Source: Candidatus Marinacidobacterales bacterium
GTDB lineage: Bacteria; Acidobacteriota; Vicinamibacteria; Marinacidobacterales; DATDRI01
Direction: 5' to 3'
DNA length: 64,000 bases
Assembly (NCBI GenBank): GCA_965219415.1
Contig: CBDCNP010000002.1
Coordinates: 3,104,001 to 3,168,000, forward strand
How positions within the stretch are numbered: the stretch's first letter is position 1; each line of letters begins with the position of its first letter. Shown piece by piece: positions 1,528 through 9,348 of this stretch. A program made the translations under genes and the position numbers. The notes under the pieces were generated by a model that was not told the DNA's origin, did no database searches, and was given only the letters and a program-made list of their open reading frames with translations.

Positions 1528-1901
1528 GGGATGAAGGAAGACGCACTCTGGTATGAAGCGGCGAACACGGTGGGGATCACCAACGCGCCTCAACGTCGTC
1601 ACCGATTCTCTGTCTCCCGACGCCAATACTCATCTTATCGAGCCCATAGATGAAGGGGCCGACGACAAGAGGACCGCCCTGTGTTTCGCGGAGATCCGAG
1701 ATTTTTACCAGAGTGAGGAAGTGCCGCTTCCGTTTCGGATCGCGGCGCATGACCCGGGCTACCTGGGAGATCTTTGGGAGACCGTCCGACATGCATTCAG
1801 CGATAGACGGCTCACCAGACGTCTCAAGGAGGCGCTGGCATTCGCGGTGTCGGTCACGACGACCTCCCGATTCGGCACCGTCTTTCACCTGGCGGAGATG
1901 C

Positions 1902-3336
1902 GAGTCAAGCCCATTCTTAGTTGAAACTCTCCACGGCTCACGTTTAAGCGACCTTCTTCTTCGATACGGTTGATGTCTTCGCCTCGATCTTCAGTTCCCG
2001 CTTGAGAGCTTCGCGAAGCTTGGGAAGATGGCGGTAGCCCACCACCTTCCTCAAGCGCGGTTCGATGTCTACGAGCGCCGTTGCCAACCAGCGCTGGCGT
2101 TGGCTTGAGTTCTTCCAGTGGTCGACCTTCGTGCAGCGTTCCTCGACGAGAGCATTGACGGACTCAAGGCAGTTCGTCGTCTTGAACGAACGGCCCAGCA
2201 CCGCGTGCACGCCGAGTCGATGCAACGTCAGCGTCTCCTCGAGGCCTTCCTCCAGGCTGCCAGCTGCGGATTGGTTCCGCTCTTCTAACTCACCGTGGAG
2301 TTGCTCGAGCGCAGTGAGGGCCTCTTCGTACTCCGGCCTGTTGTAGGCCCACTGGAGCCGCTTGCGCCATGACGCCTGCTCGCCCTTGGACAGGTAGCTC
2401 ACTACGTTTTCACGTTTGTGCCACTGGCAGCGTTGTATCAGGGCCCGCTTACGGAATGCCTTCTTGACTGCCGCTTGGAGACCCTTGCCGCCGTCGATGA
2501 TCACCAGCAGACCCTGGGAGATATCGAGTCCCCGCTCGAGCAGTGAACGCAGGAACGGCGTCAACACCTGCGCGTTCTCCGTGTCCGTCTCCACGAAGCC
2601 CAAGAAGCGTTTTTCCCCGCAAAGCGTGATGCCCAGAGCCACGACCATCGTTGCCTCGGCGAATGTCTTCCCATCCAGAAACAGCGCCACCACATCCTCG
2701 CCGGTCAGATCCCGTTCCTGCATCTCCCGCAGCTTCGCAGCGCTCGCTTGCACGAACCCTCGGGACACCGTTGAGCTCGACAGCCCGATGGCGCCCGGAA
2801 TCGCTTCCGCTGCCGCCTCGTAGTTGCGACAAGAGATTCCGTAGAGAACTCGTTTCAGCAGAAGATCATTCACCTCACCGCCGTGGCTCACCGCCTCGTA
2901 GCAGCGAAGCGGAATCTCTCCTCCCTCGATGCTCCGAACCCGTGGCACACGGATCGGTACCCGCTGGCCGCCAAGCCCTACCGTGCCCGGGTTGCTTCCG
3001 GGACGGCGACCGCGCTCCAGCTCGTCCTTGCGAGAGTATCGCTCTCCCGCCAACGCCTTCACTTCGTCGTCGAGCAACTCGTGAACGTGCATTAGACCAA
3101 GGGGGACCAACCAACGGATCATCTCTACCTTGGCGTCCAGCGCGAGTTCCCCGTAATCCTCGTGCCTCACCATCTCGACCTCACCCAAACGACGCGACTT
3201 CTTGCGTTTCTTGACCGAACGTAGCAGACTTCCCATCTCGGCTCCTTTCTTCGCGGCTTGATTTTGTTTTGTCCAACGCCATCAAACCACGGGGTTTGGA
3301 GCCGTTTCAATTCCCAACTAAGATTGGCACACTTTC
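1902..3336 (-). mobile_element. IS256-family insertion sequence (~1435 bp)
   Basis: Imperfect terminal IRs: GAGTCAAGCCCATTCTTAGTTG at left, and the reverse complement of the right end reads GAAAGTGTGCCAATCTTAGTTG. Flanking 8-bp TSD GGAGATGC (1894-1901) / GCAGATGC (3337-3344), one mismatch. Confidence 0.9.
1944..3236 (-). CDS. IS256 (Mutator-like) DDE transposase
   Basis: Motifs FLDGK, VALGI..G.KRFLG, IIDGGKGL, QRCQWHKRENV and TTNCLES; 430 aa. Confidence 0.93.
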   Translation of the reverse strand: MGSLLRSVKKRKKSRRLGEVEMVRHEDYGELALDAKVEMIRWLVPLGLMHVHELLDDEVKALAGERYSRKDELERGRRPGSNPGTVGLGGQRVPIRVPRVRSIEGGEIPLRCYEAVSHGGEVNDLLLKRVLYGISCRNYEAAAEAIPGAIGLSSSTVSRGFVQASAAKLREMQERDLTGEDVVALFLDGKTFAEATMVVALGITLCGEKRFLGFVETDTENAQVLTPFLRSLLERGLDISQGLLVIIDGGKGLQAAVKKAFRKRALIQRCQWHKRENVVSYLSKGEQASWRKRLQWAYNRPEYEEALTALEQLHGELEERNQSAAGSLEEGLEETLTLHRLGVHAVLGRSFKTTNCLESVNALVEERCTKVDHWKNSSQRQRWLATALVDIEPRLRKVVGYRHLPKLREALKRELKIEAKTSTVSKKKVA

Positions 3337-3514
3337 GCAGATGCGCCGGCTGGGAGTAGGAAACAAGGGAGTCATGGAAGTATTAGGCATGACCCAGATG
3401 TTCTCTAGCTACACGAAGATCGCGGATACCCTTCAGCTGGATCCCGACATGAGTGAGATCGCACCCATCGACCGATCTCCCGTGCCCGATCCAAGCTGAA
3501 TCGAGGAGGGAATC

Positions 3515-4171
3515 ATGAAAAAGTGGTTCATTGGAATCGCCATAGTTGCCGGCGTGGCCGGCCTCGCCGGCTGGGGCTACTATTACGCTCTCGAGAAGGC
3601 ATGGATTCCCTACAACGAGTACGACATCCGTTCAGAGGGCACGCTGAGGGTGGGCGATCTCGCACCCGACTTGGAGCTCGCGAGTGCGGACGGGGGGACT
3701 CAAAAATTATCCGATCTCTTCAAACAAAAGCCGTTGGTTCTCATCTTTGGAAGCTACACCTGACCGCCGTTTCGAGCCAGTTTGGCCGAAGTCGAAGAGC
3801 TGAGAACAAAGTATCGAAACGACGCCGAGTTTGCCATCGTTTACATCAAAGAGGCCCATCCCGGGGACGAGTGGCAAGTAGATAGCAACACCGAGGGGGA
3901 AGTCATCTATAACCAGCCGAATTCCTTCGAGGCCCGGATGGATCTCGCCAAGACTTTCATTGACAAGATGGACGTGAAGACCCCGACGCTGGTCGACGAT
4001 ATCCAGAACACCGCCATGGCTTGCTACGCGGCGTGGCCGGAAAGGCTCTACGTCATCGAGACCGGCGGCACCATTGCCTACAAGGGGGATATGGGACCCT
4101 TCGGATTCAAGCCTGAGAAGGTGGAGAGCTACCTCGAGGAGCGTTTCGCCGGAAGGGGCGCGACAGACTAG
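3515..4171 (+). CDS. Iodothyronine deiodinase-like selenoprotein with N-terminal membrane anchor (Sec at TGA 3761-3763)
   Basis: ORFs 3515-3763 and 3782-4171 are in the same frame across the TGA: KPLVLIFGSYT-U-PPFR. Downstream deiodinase motifs YIKEAHPGDEW, YAAWPERLYVI and GPFGF. RBS GAGGAGG. Confidence 0.9.
3771..3790 (+). promoter_or_regulatory. Putative bacterial SECIS hairpin of the deiodinase-like gene
   Basis: TTCG-A-GCCA-GTT-TGGC-CGAA forms a stem with an A bulge. The apical loop begins with G, 16 nt after the UGA. Confidence 0.65.
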
Positions 4172-4230
4172 CCTCGTTCCAACTTGAACCTGGCCTAAGC
4201 TTCGGTGTTTGATTTCGGCGAAGTCCAAAA

Positions 4231-5300
4231 ATGAAACCCAACCTTGCTCTTCCGCTCCCCGGATCCGGGCAGCAGATTCGGGCTTTGCAACGAGAGCGGA
4301 AGGCCTTGGCCGTCGAGAGCGCGGGGCGGTCTCGTTTCTGGCGGCCGAGACTGACCCATATCGACACCTCGAAGCTGGACGAACCGGAGGAGTGGCGGAA
4401 GATACCGATCCTTGACAAGGAGATGCTTCGCTCCCTTTCCAACGACCAGTTTTACAACGACTTCTGCATTCCGGCTCCCGGTAAGATAGCCGAACACTGG
4501 CGCTCTGGTGGGACAACAGGGAGGCCGCTCTTTTATCTCCGTACGTTCGAAGACATTCGTTACGCGATGGTGGGCTTCGCACGAAGCTTCATGGCGATGA
4601 ACGTGCAGCCCGGTGAAACCGCGCATCTCTCCCTCCCGCTGGGCATCCACCCGGCCGGTCACATGTGGGCCCGGGCCGGCGAGATGATGGGGATCGGCAT
4701 GAACTGGGTCGGATCGGGAGCCGCGGCGCCTTCGGAGCTCCAGCTCGAGCTGATCGCCACTCTGAAGCCCTCGCTTTGGATCGGCATGCCTAGCTACGGC
4801 CTTCACCTAGCCAACCTTGCGGGCGCTCGGGGTCAGAATCTCCGAGACGGGTCGGTCCAAAAAATTCTGTGCACGGCCGAGCCGCTGTCCCGAGCCAAGC
4901 GCGAAAAGCTCGAGCGCGCGTGGGGAGCCGAAGTGTACGACGCTTTCGGCATGACCGAAGTTTCGATGATGGGTGCCGAAGGCGAGGCAGGGGATGGCCT
5001 CCACATGTGGGCCGACCTTGCGTTCATCGAGGTCGTCGATCCCGCTACCAGCGAGCCTGTGCCGGCTGGCGAACCTGGACTCCTGGTGGTCACGTCACTT
5101 TTCACGAACAACACGACACCTTTTCTAAGATGGTGCTCGGGCGACATCGTGGCTTATCGCGAGCAACGCCACGGCGAGGATCCACTCTCGGTTTTTCCCC
5201 TCCTCCGCCATGCTCACCGAACCGCTGGTTTCTTCAAGATTCGTGGCGTCAACATTAACCACTCGGAGCTCGAGGACCTGATGTTCGCCGATTCCGATTC
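4231..5300 (+). CDS. Phenylacetate-CoA ligase (PaaK)-like adenylating enzyme, C-terminal domain apparently truncated
   Basis: Motifs IPILDKEMLR, RSGGTTGRP, TAEPLS, YDAFGMTE, FLRWCSGD and FFKIRGVNI..SELEDL. Similarity ends near 5300 and the frame runs on into the next gene. Confidence 0.75.
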
Positions 5301-5394
5301 TAGACCGGAGACAGTAGCACGGTTACTCTCGGCCCTCCCAAGGCGAGCCGCCCGACTCGTGGTAGTATCGATCTCGGCGTCCTTCCTAAGAACG

Positions 5395-6429
5395 ATGAAG
5401 ACAGCATCTCCACCAACGGCCGAGGACGTAAAAGAACTCGCCCTCGAGCTGGGGGCCGATCTCGTCGGCGTCGCGAGCGCCAAGACACTTAACGCCTTCC
5501 CTCCAGACCCCAAGTATCCGCAGACCCCGGAGCGCGTCTCGCCTTACTGCAAGAGCGTCATCGTCGTCGTGCAACGCATCCCGGTCGGTGCCTTCCGCTG
5601 TAAATCCAATGTGCCGGTTCAGTACTTGGACATGCTCGTGCTCCGGAAGATGGACAAGGTCGCCTACCGGTTGGCCGAGCATTTGGAGCGAGCAGGTTAT
5701 CCGTCCTTTGTTACCGCGGCCCAGGAGACCGACTGGAACTATAAGCGAGCCAGCTACGGGAGGCTGAGCACGCGCCACCTCGGGATCGAAGCGGGACTCG
5801 GTACTTTCGGTCTCGAAGTCAACATTTTGACGCCGGAGTACGGGCCGCGAGTCTACCTCACCGGAATTCTGACCGAGCTCGAGCTCGAGCCCGATGCACC
5901 CATGACCGAGCAGGTGTGTATCGGTGAGTCCTGCAGCCGGTGTCTCTACAGTTGTCCGACCGATGCCATAGGGCATTTCGACATCGACAAACGCGACTGC
6001 GCGAAAGAGGCGCAAGAGTTCGGATTCACCACCATCCTCAAGTATTTCGAGCGTTTCGTGGCGTCGTCCCGGGAGACCAAGGCGGGGATGCTGAAATCGC
6101 GTGACCTGTACGGATTTTGGCAGGGGTTGCTACGGGTAGTCGGATCCTTCGGGGACTGTCCGCGATGCCTCGCCGTCTGCCCGGTCGGAGACGACTACTA
6201 CGCGCATTTGGTCGAGATACAGAAGTTCATTCCCGAAACGACCGACGAAAAGATCACCAAGGCCAAGGGGTTCAAGGCGGCCCGCAAGCGTGGCGATGCC
6301 ATCGAGGGGCTCAACGAATGGAACGCCCGATGGGTGGGACCGGAGGGCTACCAAGGGCTCGTCGCACGGCACCTGAAGAAATTCCGTGAGAAACAAAAGG
6401 CGCTTCTAGCGCGGTCTGCGAAGAGATAG
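5395..6429 (+). CDS. QueG/reductive dehalogenase-like 2x[4Fe-4S] (putatively cobalamin-binding) protein, paralog 1
   Basis: Motifs VKELALELGADLVGVA, EAGLGTFG...LTPEYGPRVYLTGILTEL, CIGESCSRCLYSCP and CPRCLAVCP. Probable own start at ATG 5395, in frame with the PaaK ORF. Confidence 0.75.
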   Translation: MKTASPPTAEDVKELALELGADLVGVASAKTLNAFPPDPKYPQTPERVSPYCKSVIVVVQRIPVGAFRCKSNVPVQYLDMLVLRKMDKVAYRLAEHLERAGYPSFVTAAQETDWNYKRASYGRLSTRHLGIEAGLGTFGLEVNILTPEYGPRVYLTGILTELELEPDAPMTEQVCIGESCSRCLYSCPTDAIGHFDIDKRDCAKEAQEFGFTTILKYFERFVASSRETKAGMLKSRDLYGFWQGLLRVVGSFGDCPRCLAVCPVGDDYYAHLVEIQKFIPETTDEKITKAKGFKAARKRGDAIEGLNEWNARWVGPEGYQGLVARHLKKFREKQKALLARSAKR

Positions 6430-6439
6430 TTCCCGCATT

Positions 6440-7456
6440 ATGATCGAGACTTACCAAGCGCCGCTTACCGCCCAGCAGATCAAGGCAAAGGCACGTGAGC
6501 TCGGCGCCGACTTGGTCGGAATCGCCGACGGCAAGGTGATGGAGGAACACCCTCCCGAACCGAGCGATCCGCGGCGACCCTCCGATATCACCGACTATGA
6601 CGCCGATCGCGTCATCGTCATGGCGAAAAAGTATACGAGCGGCACCTCCCGCATTCTCCCCTGGAACGATCGCCACAAGTACTACAACGACGAGCTGACT
6701 TTAACCATGTTGGAAGAGGCCTCGCTGGAGCTCGTTTACTGGCTCGAGGACAACGGCTATCCGTCGGTCATCATTCCTCCCACCCACGTCGACCCCTGGC
6801 GCTATCAAGACCAGCCGGAGGAACATCAAAAGACGCTACTATCGCTCACCCATGCTGCGGTCGAGGCGGGATTGGGGACCCTCGGCCTAAACCTGCAGCT
6901 GCTTACCCCCGAGTACGGACCGCGGGTGATTCTCACTGCGGTGCTGTGCTCCGTGGACTGCGAAGCAGGCAGTCGCGTCGAAGAAGCGTTATGTCTCGGA
7001 CCCGAGTGTGGGCGGTGTTTGGAAACCTGTCCCGGAGACGTCGTCCAACATTGGAATCGCGATTGGGAAGGCTGTGATCGTTACCGATCACCCCACGGCT
7101 TCGCCCAGCTCACCGACCATCTGGTCAACATCCTGGACCAGACGGACGTCCCCAAGCAAAAAGAGATGATCCGCTCGGAGGAAAGCTTCAACCTCTGGCA
7201 GAGTATTTTGCGAGGGGCCGGCGTCATTACTGGCTGCCGCCGCTGCCAAGACGTCTGCCCGGTGGGAGAAGACTACGCCGCCCTCGAGGATGCACTCGAG
7301 GAGCTCCCGGAGAGCACGCCCGAGAAGAAGCAACGTCTCCTAGAGATGATGAAGGTCGAGAAAAAGGAAATCCCCCCTGGCGGCTACCAAGCCCAGCGCC
7401 GCTGGATCGGGGAGGTTACGTACCGGAAGCCCTGGCCTAAAGCTTTCGACGTTTGA
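6440..7456 (+). CDS. QueG/reductive dehalogenase-like 2x[4Fe-4S] protein, paralog 2
   Basis: Motifs IKAKARELGADLVGIA, HAAVEAGLGTLG...LTPEYGPRVILTAVL, CLGPECGRCLETCP and CRRCQDVCP. Confidence 0.78.
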   Translation: MIETYQAPLTAQQIKAKARELGADLVGIADGKVMEEHPPEPSDPRRPSDITDYDADRVIVMAKKYTSGTSRILPWNDRHKYYNDELTLTMLEEASLELVYWLEDNGYPSVIIPPTHVDPWRYQDQPEEHQKTLLSLTHAAVEAGLGTLGLNLQLLTPEYGPRVILTAVLCSVDCEAGSRVEEALCLGPECGRCLETCPGDVVQHWNRDWEGCDRYRSPHGFAQLTDHLVNILDQTDVPKQKEMIRSEESFNLWQSILRGAGVITGCRRCQDVCPVGEDYAALEDALEELPESTPEKKQRLLEMMKVEKKEIPPGGYQAQRRWIGEVTYRKPWPKAFDV

Positions 7457-7665
7457 GTAACAGGAATTCTCAAGTGGGTTAGGGCGCGCCCACGACAGTG
7501 TCATCCCCTAACTAACCCAGTAGCTAGAGCTTACGGTCATAGGGTTCCGTTGGTCATATTTTATATTCTTTAATTAGCTCTATGAGATAACTATTGCAAA
7601 TAAATTATGAGAATCGCCGAAATTGTGATATTATCGATGCAACAATTAGCCTCAAAGAAGAACTA

Positions 7666-8502
7666 ATGAACTCACAATATCACGCTCCGGCCAAGACACT
7701 GGGACCCCAAGCGGCGGGCCTCGTGGTGGCGTTGTATGAATGTGATCGCCCCGTTTTCACAGTGAAGGAGGCGGCGGACATTACGGGACTAGGTCCAGCC
7801 GCCGCCGCCAGGTTCCTGCACAAGCTCGCGCGACGTGGAATCCTGACCCACTTGGGACGTGGCCTCTACAGGCTCATCCCTTTCGAATTGGGTTCGGCAC
7901 GCGAGTTCCTTGGCAATCCGTTCGTTATCGTGCGTGAGTTCGCGCGGGGCGCCGACTACTACGTCTCCCACGCATCGGCAATGGACATTCATGGCATGCT
8001 CACCCAACCCCAACTCGTCGTGTACGCAACCTCCCCGAAGCAGATTCGGAGTCGGGAGGTGCTGGGCACCGTGTTCCGGCTCGTGCGATGCAAGGCAAAT
8101 CATTTTTTCGGCACGTTCGAGCACTGGGCAGACAAGCAGGAAAAGATCGTCGTGAGCGACCTAGAGCGGACTGTGCTGGACGGCCTGAAGCAGCCACAGT
8201 ACACCGGAGGGATTACCGAGGTCGCCAAGGGGATGTGGATGAGGCGGGATGGTCTCAGCGTTCCCAAACTCGTCGACTACGCGCTCCGGCTCGGAATCGG
8301 CGCAGTCGTTCGCCGCTTGGGTTTTCTGCTCGAGCTCTATGAGCTTGGACCTTCGACGGAGTTGGATCGCCTTCGGGATAAACTGAGCTCGACGTACATG
8401 CTTCTCGACCCGCTGCTTTCTCCGGGAGGCAAGTACTTGTCTCGCTGGCGACTGCGCCTCAATGTAATACCCGAGGAACTTCAAACCGTCGTACGTACGT
8501 GA
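7666..8502 (+). CDS. abiEi: Type IV TA antitoxin, AbiEi-family transcriptional regulator
   Basis: N-terminal wHTH (L..LARRG.LTHLGRGLY), YYVSHASAM..HG, VSDLERTVLDGL and RRLGFLLE. Directly upstream of an AbiEii gene. Confidence 0.8.
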   Translation: MNSQYHAPAKTLGPQAAGLVVALYECDRPVFTVKEAADITGLGPAAAARFLHKLARRGILTHLGRGLYRLIPFELGSAREFLGNPFVIVREFARGADYYVSHASAMDIHGMLTQPQLVVYATSPKQIRSREVLGTVFRLVRCKANHFFGTFEHWADKQEKIVVSDLERTVLDGLKQPQYTGGITEVAKGMWMRRDGLSVPKLVDYALRLGIGAVVRRLGFLLELYELGPSTELDRLRDKLSSTYMLLDPLLSPGGKYLSRWRLRLNVIPEELQTVVRT

Positions 8503-8505
8503 ACT

Positions 8506-9348
8506 ATGATCCACCAGCGCAACCTTTCGCTACTCTCGAACCGTCTCGCGAGGAAAGGTGGACACCGGATTCCCGAACGAGTTCTTGAGCGGGACTATTG
8601 CCTAGCGTGGTTCCTTGTCTCCCTCTCAAAAACACCCCTCCGTAAGTTCCTGGCATTCAAGGGAGGAACGGCCCTGAAGCGCTGCTATTTCGGCGACTAC
8701 AGGTTCTCCGAGGACCTCGATTTTACGCTGCAATCCGAAACGACTTGGGAAGAGATCCGTCGAAATCTTGATCAGGTTCTCGATGAAGTCCGACGCGCCT
8801 CGGCGATCGTCTTCGAGTTCCTAGAGAGGGACGGAAGGAGTCACGAGAATAGCCACACGTTCTACCTTGGCTACGAAGGACCGCTCCCGGCAAGCTCTGG
8901 AAGAAGGGTGAAAGTAGACATCACAATCAAAGAAAGGGGCGTTTTCTCATTAGAAGATCGACCGGTCTTACGAGGATACGATGAATACGAAGACTTGCCG
9001 GACGATAGCCCGATCTTAGTCTACTCCCTCAAGGAAATTGCGACGGAGAAAGTAGTCGCCCTCATAGATCCGGCGCGGAACGAACCTCGCGACTTGTACG
9101 ACATATGGTTTCTGGAAAGCAGCGGCTCCGTCAGAGTCGATGATCTCTTGAGCGCCGTCGAGGAGAAGTTGGACTTTCGCGGGAAGACTCTCACCGACGT
9201 GAAAAGCGTATTCCACACCAAGGAGAGCCGGTACAAGCGGCTCTGGGAAGGACGCCTCTCCGCACAGATGAGGGAGATCCCGGAGTTCGAGAAGGTCTAT
9301 CGCGAGGTGCAACGAGCATTCAGACAGGCGGGCCTATTGGAGAAATAG
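8506..9348 (+). CDS. abiEii: Type IV TA toxin, AbiEii-family nucleotidyltransferase
   Basis: Motifs ERDY, FKGGTALKRCYFGDYRFSEDLDF, EK..AL and PRDLYD. Confidence 0.9.
   Translation: MIHQRNLSLLSNRLARKGGHRIPERVLERDYCLAWFLVSLSKTPLRKFLAFKGGTALKRCYFGDYRFSEDLDFTLQSETTWEEIRRNLDQVLDEVRRASAIVFEFLERDGRSHENSHTFYLGYEGPLPASSGRRVKVDITIKERGVFSLEDRPVLRGYDEYEDLPDDSPILVYSLKEIATEKVVALIDPARNEPRDLYDIWFLESSGSVRVDDLLSAVEEKLDFRGKTLTDVKSVFHTKESRYKRLWEGRLSAQMREIPEFEKVYREVQRAFRQAGLLEK

Follow-up and report, generated by a model that had tools for sequence, protein, structure and literature searches.

An acidobacterial gene of the iodothyronine deiodinase family that very probably reads an in-frame TGA as selenocysteine

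Introduction

The genome of a Candidatus Marinacidobacterales bacterium (Acidobacteriota; assembly GCA_965219415.1) raises a simple question: is a TGA codon that separates two short open reading frames (ORFs) an ordinary stop, or is it read as selenocysteine (Sec, U) within a single gene? Both ORFs lie on the forward strand of the 64,000-nt stretch that we analysed (hereafter the window; contig CBDCNP010000002.1, positions 3,104,001 to 3,168,000, renumbered here from 1). The ORF table lists them at 3515..3763 (82 aa, ATG start) and at 3782..4171 (129 aa, TTG start), in the same frame, and the sole break between them is the TGA at 3761-3763. Our analysis of the sequence and of its homologues indicates that 3515-4171 is very probably one selenoprotein gene, with its TGA recoded as Sec, and that its product belongs to the iodothyronine deiodinase family.

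The initial annotation of this locus, made from its letters, noted that deiodinase-like selenoproteins had been predicted in bacteria before. They were indeed described in 2005 from the Sargasso Sea, in an account that gives four Sec sequences and six Cys homologues (Zhang, Fomenko, Gladyshev, Genome Biol 6:R37, PMC1088965), and 22 Sec sequences with 21 Cys homologues are listed for the Global Ocean Sampling data (PMC2398784). The family is entered without a function in the tables of reviews from 2022 and 2026, where its motif is given as UxxC (PMC9312934, PMC13188914). A Dictyostelium homologue has been excluded as the dechlorinase of differentiation-inducing factor (DIF) (PMC3205185). Our search of the open-access literature turned up no biochemical work on any member from bacteria. 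The gene presented here is a well-supported additional member of the family described in 2005, and is nothing new in kind.

One gene across an in-frame TGA codon

Read with TGA as U, the gene (3515..4171, + strand) runs over 218 codons to a TAG at 4169-4171, and a Shine-Dalgarno sequence, GAGGAGG, can be read 5 nt 5′ of its ATG (3503..3509, + strand). The initial annotation had joined the two ORFs into one gene across the TGA, and translation bears out both its coordinates and its motifs: the read-through protein has 218 residues (MKKWFIGIAIVAGVAGLAGWGYYY...FGSYT-U-PPF...YIKEAHPGDEW...WPERLYVI...). The TGA itself (3761..3763, + strand; U83 in the protein) falls, as had been claimed, at the Sec position of the deiodinase motif. 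The FGSYT-U-PPF stretch aligns with the active site of mouse Dio3 (4tr3) and Dio2 (9h48), and the TGA column is the native Sec of these enzymes, which was mutated to Cys in the crystallised proteins. The downstream YIxEAH..D.W and ERLYVI motifs are likewise intact after translation and alignment to mouse Dio3 and Dio2. The first of them contains the deiodinase ‘EAH’ relay motif, E113-A114-H115 (3851..3859, + strand), which aligns with the EAH of Dio3 and is invariant in all 34 sequences of our homologue alignment.

Profile and structure searches place the whole read-through product in the same family. PF00837 (T4_deiodinase) matches residues 19-209 with 127.8 bits (E 5.2e-37, cut-off 27), and this is the one PF00837 gene of the source genome, in which a second copy was not found. 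The nearest sequences in the PDB are those of mouse Dio3 (4tr3, E 2.4e-28) and Dio2 (9h48, E 7.8e-21), and the alignment to the catalytic core of Dio3 is continuous, with a single 3-residue gap. A 47%-identical protein, P0121, is named ‘deiodinase-like protein’ by NCBI.

It is extremely improbable that the TGA is a true stop and that the locus consists of two unrelated small ORFs or of a dead gene. The case for it is that gene callers split the locus, that 116 of the 120 best database matches are C-terminal pieces of 119-156 aa, and that an insertion sequence (IS) lies just upstream. This IS cuts the upstream operon partner 180 nt before the ATG, and the gene may therefore be expressed differently in this strain. 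However, termination at this codon would break the thioredoxin fold right at the active site, and both halves of the protein are conserved together with the TGA in more than 40 genomes. The genome also has the full Sec machinery, a conserved hairpin follows the codon, and other homologues carry a Cys at the same column, as detailed below. Because gene callers cut at the Sec codon, annotations of Acidobacteriota under-report the family.

Conservation of the TGA and the selenocysteine machinery

The source genome (8.05 Mb in three contigs, 59% G+C) encodes SelA (475.8 bits), a SelB wing domain within a 660-aa frame, a tRNA-SeC with anticodon tca and SelD (328.3 bits). As selD holds an in-frame TGA of its own (locus L084, contig C3 3889655-3890587), the selenophosphate synthetase of this genome is probably a selenoprotein too. 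An alternative genetic code with TGA as a sense codon was ruled out, since 19 of the 33 window ORFs of at least 300 aa terminate in TGA, which is used as a normal stop here more often than any other codon.

The codon is retained in every strong homologue that we found in the phylum. Among 61 related genomes, U occupies the same motif at all 17 strong homologue loci. We then considered 401 evenly sampled Acidobacteriota genomes with a match threshold of E 1e-20 or better. An in-frame TGA is present in 41 of the 41 matching genomes, and in 38 of 38 once the unpublished G083, G107 and G209 are left out; for the last 11 rows of this match list the TGA was counted with the motif column unchecked. 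The motif column was confirmed at 44 of 45 loci, the remaining one (L073) lying outside the search pattern; L067, L076 and L077 from unpublished genomes are part of this set. Roughly a tenth of the Acidobacteriota species in the sample have the gene, always with TGA.

Comparison with a wider set of homologues agrees with the assignment of this column to Sec. In the 34-sequence alignment, which, like the 37-sequence hairpin analysis below, excludes loci L067, L076 and L077 from unpublished genomes, the active-site column is occupied by U 32 times and by C twice, and by no other residue. The two Cys forms, P0035 (211 aa) and P0068 (208 aa), were both called as genes by JGI and are 47-49% identical to the window protein. 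Conservation downstream of the TGA runs to the end of the domain. The initial annotation had also raised the matter of a TGC, TGT or TGG in the reads. None is seen in contigs from four runs of four studies, all of which show codon 3761-3763 unchanged, although one or two of these runs are possibly the source of the assembly. Since these contigs agree, the TGA is not a sequencing error.

A few homologues depart from a single frame. Those of G014, G010 and G042 (L018, L020 and L021) are matched in two to three pieces in different frames, as is a second copy in G034 (L055); the sequences would fit either frameshift decay or assembly errors. In addition, many weaker thioredoxin-fold matches in the source genome and its relatives carry a single in-frame TGA (for example at contig C3 4094711-4094932), the UPYC subfamily at L023-L025 being one such case. 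Such matches suggest that the selenoproteome of the order is rich.

A hairpin downstream of the TGA

A hairpin resembling a selenocysteine insertion sequence (SECIS), with a G in its loop and 16 nt past the codon, had been noted in the initial annotation, and our folds recover it. It lies within the coding sequence (3768..3794, + strand; core 3770-3791). In the best local fold 3768-3774 pair with 3787-3794 and 3776-3779 with 3783-3786, with the A at 3775 bulged out and GUU (3780-3782) as the loop. When the A-U closing pair is opened, the loop reads AGUUU (3779-3783) and starts 16 nt past the A of the TGA. The distance from the UGA to the apical stem is 12 nt; in E. coli fdhF the upper stem lies about 11 nt from the UGA.

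The hairpin was compared with control windows taken from the same gene, folded sequence by sequence. Its energy of -11.3 kcal/mol stands against a mean of -5.8 for 162 34-nt windows, 4.9% of which are equally stable. Taken alone this margin is modest, and the comparison across homologues is more telling. Over 37 distinct sequences, hairpins average -11.73 kcal/mol versus -7.45 for same-gene controls, and 34 of the 37 are more stable than the mean of their own gene. A paired test gives p = 2.5e-9, a value that is too strong because the sequences are kin. Every one of the 37 loops contains a G (GGU in 14 of them), and 32 of these loops begin 16-19 nt past the UGA. The stems of different lineages differ both in letters and in the amino acids that they encode: GCC/GGC over UUUCG/CGAA, CGCGCC/GGCGCG, CCGGGCC/GGCCCGG and GCGCUC/GAGCGC (the last with a GGUC loop), as well as GCGGGA/UCCCGC, GAGGU/ACCUC and GAAGAUC/GAUCUUC. 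The bacterial SECIS pattern, as set out in the 2005 description, is a small apical loop with a guanosine immediately downstream of the UGA (PMC1088965), and the homologue hairpins match it in having a small G-containing loop directly after the UGA.

Several results weigh against this hairpin as a signal. The hairpins of L019, L056 and L069 (3/37) are no better than the mean of their gene, and a longer, 76-nt fold of 3755-3830 is unremarkable, its z being a non-significant -1.45, with 19 of 200 shuffles equally stable. An Rfam scan of 3650-3950 with E up to 10 returned no family. RNAalifold found no consensus pairs on the ungapped 41-sequence alignment A1, which includes L067, L076 and L077 from unpublished genomes. 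We attribute this last result to the stem register, which shifts by 1-3 nt between clades, and the per-sequence folds were used in place of RNAalifold. A promoter scan of 3200-4300 found no sigma-70-like site against 0.6 expected, a result that is uninformative for this phylum.

Fold and active site

Residues 45-209 (3647..4141, + strand) are predicted to form a thioredoxin-fold catalytic domain with a deiodinase-type insertion, as judged from the Dio3 alignment, AlphaFold2 and Foldseek. The AlphaFold2 model, built with 34 homologues, has a mean predicted local distance difference test score (pLDDT) of 91.5. The top Foldseek matches to it are 4tr3 (target TM-score 0.81) and 9h48 (0.83), and ResA, DsbE, Etrx and Bcp proteins rank after them. 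NF038285 (deiodinase_rel), an NCBIfam hypothetical equivalog, scores 189.7 bits (E 9.4e-56), below its 250-bit cut-off. The alignment covers profile positions 177-338 of 347, that is, 162 positions of its C-terminal part, and leaves the first 176 without a counterpart; with this gap and a score under the cut-off, the protein would be of a shorter architecture than NF038285.

Invariant in the 34-sequence alignment are T82, U/C83, P84, P85, F86, R87, Y110, E113, A114 and H115, and also W120, N125, R141, D161, W174, P175, R177, K190, G194 and P195; S80 is nearly so. According to the 2024 paper on the Dio2 structure (PMC11592359), protons are relayed by six residues, which in Dio3 are Ser167, Thr169, Tyr197, Glu200, His202 and His219. 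The paper also describes a conserved Trp, and a basic residue (Arg275 in Dio3, Lys241 in Dio2) that clamps the carboxylate of the thyronine. Five of the six Dio3 relay residues are retained here (S80, T82, Y110, E113 and H115), and the sixth, His219, corresponds to Pro135. The protein has no CxxC motif. A Cys conserved across the family is absent, as is a Cys at +3 in the 34-sequence alignment; there are clade-specific Cys instead (Cys170 here).

The protein can thus be set beside three kinds of known systems. Like animal Dio1-3 (4TR3 and 4TR4 for Dio3, 9H48 for Dio2), it has the fold with the Dio insertion (TM-score 0.81-0.83, 29-35% identity), the FGS-x-T-U-PPF motif, the Ser, Thr, Tyr, Glu and His residues of the relay, the Trp and a single N-terminal membrane helix. 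Unlike them, it would use a SECIS of bacterial type within the ORF and is predicted to face outwards, the Cys next to Sec (SCTU) is a Tyr, Dio3 His219 is Pro135 and Arg275/Lys241 is a Met. With ResA, TlpA, DsbE, Etrx and Bcp it shares the thioredoxin fold. Such proteins have a membrane or lipoprotein anchor and an outward-facing domain. They differ from the window protein in their CxxC or peroxidatic Cys, in having neither the Dio insertion nor the EAH relay, and in matching at E 1e-5 or weaker. This insertion and this relay are hallmarks of deiodinases, and not of peroxiredoxins or of TlpA. Finally, it resembles the prokaryotic family as characterised in 2005 in its PF00837 domain, its in-frame UGA at the active site, its Cys homologues and its bacterial SECIS with a G in a small apical loop after the UGA (PMC1088965). 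The UxxC motif of the review tables differs from the U-P-P-F of the window protein, which, as in the animal enzymes, has no Cys at +3. The UPYC subfamily of relatives (L024 and L025) reaches a marginal 35-39 bits on PF00837, versus 127.8 here.

Membrane anchor and orientation

Directly after an N-terminal MKK, residues 4-22 (3524..3580, + strand) make up a hydrophobic anchor or signal segment with a mean Kyte-Doolittle value of 1.61, and the AlphaFold2 model shows a helix at residues 2-36. A similar N-terminal segment is found in 30 of the 34 aligned homologues; the start codons of the other four were chosen by script, and these proteins are possibly truncated.

The initial annotation had likened the topology to that of the animal enzymes. 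Our results retain the single N-terminal helix and depart from this likeness in the orientation, which is predicted to be outward. The flank before the helix, rich in Lys and Arg, has a net charge of at least +2 in 29 of the 30 helix-bearing homologues and is more positive than the flank after it in 26 of the 30. By the positive-inside rule, the N-terminus would then be cytoplasmic and the catalytic domain would lie on the outer side. The Cys form P0068 has an apparent cleavable signal peptide (...STIHA/QD...), which again points to an extracytoplasmic domain. The thioredoxin-fold domain therefore likely faces the periplasm. In Dio1 and Dio2, by contrast, the catalytic domain is turned towards the cytosol. 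Judged by their recurrence, the TGA, the hairpin and the anchor are beyond chance, since all three come back in homologues.

Possible chemistry and substrate

From these parts a working scheme can be proposed. The hairpin, 5-7 nt past the UGA and with its loop 16-17 nt downstream, would recruit SelB with Sec-tRNA(Sec), a step that we infer from the presence and conservation of the parts. The product would be held in the cytoplasmic membrane by its N-terminal helix, with Sec83 placed at the N-terminus of helix alpha1 beside the invariant or nearly invariant relay residues Ser80, Thr82, Tyr110, Glu113 and His115. In a reductive cycle with one selenol, Sec83 would serve as the nucleophile: its selenolate would attack the substrate at an electrophilic atom, and a thiol would then reduce the Se-X or Se-OH intermediate so formed.

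What this substrate might be is a matter on which the evidence divides. We tentatively favour halogenated aromatic small molecules, which could undergo reductive dehalogenation of the deiodinase type; we lean towards such a dehalogenation, on compounds other than thyronines, because the Dio-specific relay is retained and the use of Sec is strict. Thyroid hormone itself is an unlikely substrate, and bacteria are not expected to have it, as stated in the discussion of the family in 2005 (PMC1088965). A number of points weigh against a dehalogenase. At the position of Dio3 His219, almost all of the bacterial sequences have Pro. The clamp Arg275 is replaced by Met here, and by M, I, L, V, P, T, A or S among the homologues; the missing basic clamp speaks against thyronine as a substrate, and not against membership of the family. 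The describers of the family proposed a general redox role in the same discussion (PMC1088965), and we found no dehalogenation-related neighbour conserved across the homologue loci.

The main alternative, conceivable though somewhat doubtful, is that the same gene, with the same Sec reading, encodes a peroxidase or a thiol-redox protein of the envelope, akin to peroxiredoxins, TlpA or ResA. The peroxiredoxin-like fold, the redox proposal of the discoverers and the missing dehalogenation context all lean this way. AhpC-TSA (37.2 bits) and Redoxin (31.1 bits) are the rival Pfam matches of the protein, and both pass their cut-offs; ResA, DsbE, Etrx and Bcp are its next fold neighbours after Dio3 and Dio2, and the thyronine clamp is lost. 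Homologues adjoin MsrB in L038 and MsrA in L049. These Msr neighbours, however, have no obvious signal peptide by eye and are probably in another compartment, and an Etrx-like role feeding MsrA or MsrB was rejected as unsupported on these grounds. Also contrary to a peroxidase or thiol-redox protein are the deiodinase insertion and the EAH relay, both kept without exception in the 34 sequences, the lack of a CxxC and of a family-wide resolving Cys, and the retention of Sec in all 41 Acidobacteriota matches.

A more specific and improbable version of the dehalogenase reading is that the acidobacterial U-P-P-F proteins are Se-dependent reductive dehalogenases on the outer face of the cytoplasmic membrane, which strip I, Br or Cl from natural halogenated phenolics, and that in this marine genus the gene later came to share an operon with the genes of a CMD-like protein and of two Fe-S proteins related to QueG and RdhA. 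Were it true, the chemistry by which thyroid hormone is deiodinated would have its bacterial ancestors in these proteins, which would also provide a third bacterial route of reductive dehalogenation, independent of B12 and of flavin. As nearly the whole catalytic apparatus of the animal deiodinases is kept, the protein would in either case offer a tractable model for the origin of Se-based dehalogenation or for its peroxiredoxin-like precursor.

Genomic context and the substrate

The initial annotation suggested that the context of the gene points to a substrate. In the window the gene is followed by two genes for iron-sulphur (Fe-S) proteins of the QueG/RdhA superfamily. The first (5422..6429, + strand, from an internal ATG at 5422) matches TIGR00276 with 55.4 bits and TIGR02486 with 40.1 bits, both below cut-off. 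The second (6440..7456, + strand) matches TIGR00276 with 38.4 bits, and its PDB matches are QueG (5d08, E 3.4e-5) and PceA (4uqu, E 2e-4). The closest named relatives, two ‘Candidatus Marinacidobacterales bacterium’ metagenome-assembled genomes (L033 and L034, 89-90% protein identity), show a B3/4-domain gene, a CMD-family gene, the deiodinase-like gene and the two QueG/RdhA-superfamily genes in tandem, in this order. Gaps among these genes are of 10-32 nt (14-19 between the CMD-family and deiodinase-like genes, about 30 before the first Fe-S paralogue and about 10 between the paralogues). The same arrangement is seen in G001 and G002, which may be the same two genomes, so that two are counted in all.

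The pair corresponds neither to QueG nor to a typical RdhA. Their identification as QueG was rejected, since a true QueG is encoded elsewhere in the genome at 375 bits. Against the reductive dehalogenase profile TIGR02486 they score 40 and 25 bits, compared with a cut-off of 160. A protein-atlas look-up placed them only in ‘hypothetical’ or ‘epoxyqueuosine reductase family’ clusters, and neither has an N-terminal signal by eye. The pair occurs in 3 of the 61 relatives, all of the same genus, and in 6 of the 401 phylum genomes.

The association with the deiodinase-like gene does not extend beyond the genus. A QueG/RdhA-like gene lies beside the deiodinase-like gene in none of the 19 wide loci outside the genus, and in none of the 28 loci of the phylum sample inspected over ±1.5 kb (none of 25 without the unpublished genomes). 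Three other genomes, G293, G388 and G405, carry both, at separations of 1.47 Mb, 0.29 Mb and 0.28 Mb. Elsewhere the paralogues form their own tandem arrays of two or three genes (L107-L116; the same 6/401 genomes), next to a PaaK-like gene in two of five other genomes (L109 and L112), and none of 10 such loci includes a deiodinase-like or a CMD-like gene. On this gene order, the QueG/RdhA-like pair belongs to a module separate from the deiodinase-like gene.

We therefore think that the neighbourhood does not reveal the substrate, the adjoining of QueG/RdhA-like genes being confined to this genus. The context is uninformative because the paralogues are not QueG, score below the reductive dehalogenase cut-off, have no signal, are rare, and outside the genus neither adjoin the gene nor are linked to it. 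It is accordingly very unlikely that the genus has a functional operon in which the selenoprotein and the two QueG/RdhA-like Fe-S proteins, perhaps with the CMD-like protein, share a substrate. The four genes are co-directional with short gaps in L033 and L034, and the RdhA family, which the paralogues match weakly through TIGR02486, includes reductive dehalogenases. The rarity of the pair, its absence from the wide and narrow loci elsewhere, its lack of linkage in all three other genomes with both and the composition of the paralogue loci all argue the other way, as do the compartments: the paralogues lack an N-terminal signal by eye, and the selenoprotein is predicted to face outwards. The value of the locus is that of a clean and well-supported example of the family, and of a warning that neighbours do not disclose the substrate.

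Context was also rejected as a guide to function across the family, as neighbours vary by lineage, come partly from close kin and have no universal theme. Homologues adjoin an amidohydrolase in L042, L043, L051 and L053 (about 2 kb off in L048), an ornithine cyclodeaminase (OCD)/mu-crystallin protein in L043, L051 and L053, an aldehyde dehydrogenase in L042, L043 and L051, sortilin/BNR proteins in L046, L048 and L055 (with weaker matches in L060 and L066) and a sulfatase in L046, L055, L056 and L069. In L043, L051 and L053 (and L042), all of one family, the gene lies between the amidohydrolase and the OCD/mu-crystallin gene. Mammalian mu-crystallin binds thyroid hormone; the mu-crystallin neighbourhood is probably a coincidence among close kin.

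Rearrangements around the gene

The window differs from L033 and L034 in three respects: an IS, a PaaK-like stretch and an AbiEi/AbiEii pair. The IS (1903..3335, - strand) encodes a Mutator-family transposase (ORF 1944-3236, PF00872) between inverted repeats at 1911-1939 and 3299-3327. It splits the CMD-family gene into a 5′ part (1553..1902, + strand), which corresponds to the beginning of an ORF that is intact in L033 (186 aa; PF02627, 25.7 bits), and a 3′ part (3336..3499, + strand), which ends 15 nt 5′ of the ATG of the deiodinase-like gene. This IS256-like element of about 1.42 kb is not in L033 or L034, and about 35 near-full-length copies, 99.5-100% identical, are spread over the three contigs of the genome. 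Metagenome contigs of runs X1, X5 and X10 carry an uninterrupted junction at 3339, so the insertion is polymorphic in nature.

Downstream of the deiodinase-like gene, a 1.25-kb stretch (4169-5418) is not present at this site in L033 and L034, and the homology of the first Fe-S protein to its relatives starts at 5419. The stretch holds a segment similar to PaaK-like adenylating enzymes (4231..5421, + strand; NF041878 and TIGR02155 over residues 14-357), which has no stop of its own and is in frame with the next gene. Segment and QueG/RdhA-like gene together form a 732-aa ORF, and the C-terminal domain of the segment is missing or diverged. Directly after the second QueG-like gene comes an AbiEi antitoxin/AbiEii toxin pair (7594-9348), at a place where L033 has a gene of the metalloenzyme/sulfatase superfamily. 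A 72%-identical homologue of the PaaK-like segment lies about 31 kb from the deiodinase locus in G002, and itself carries an in-frame TGA.

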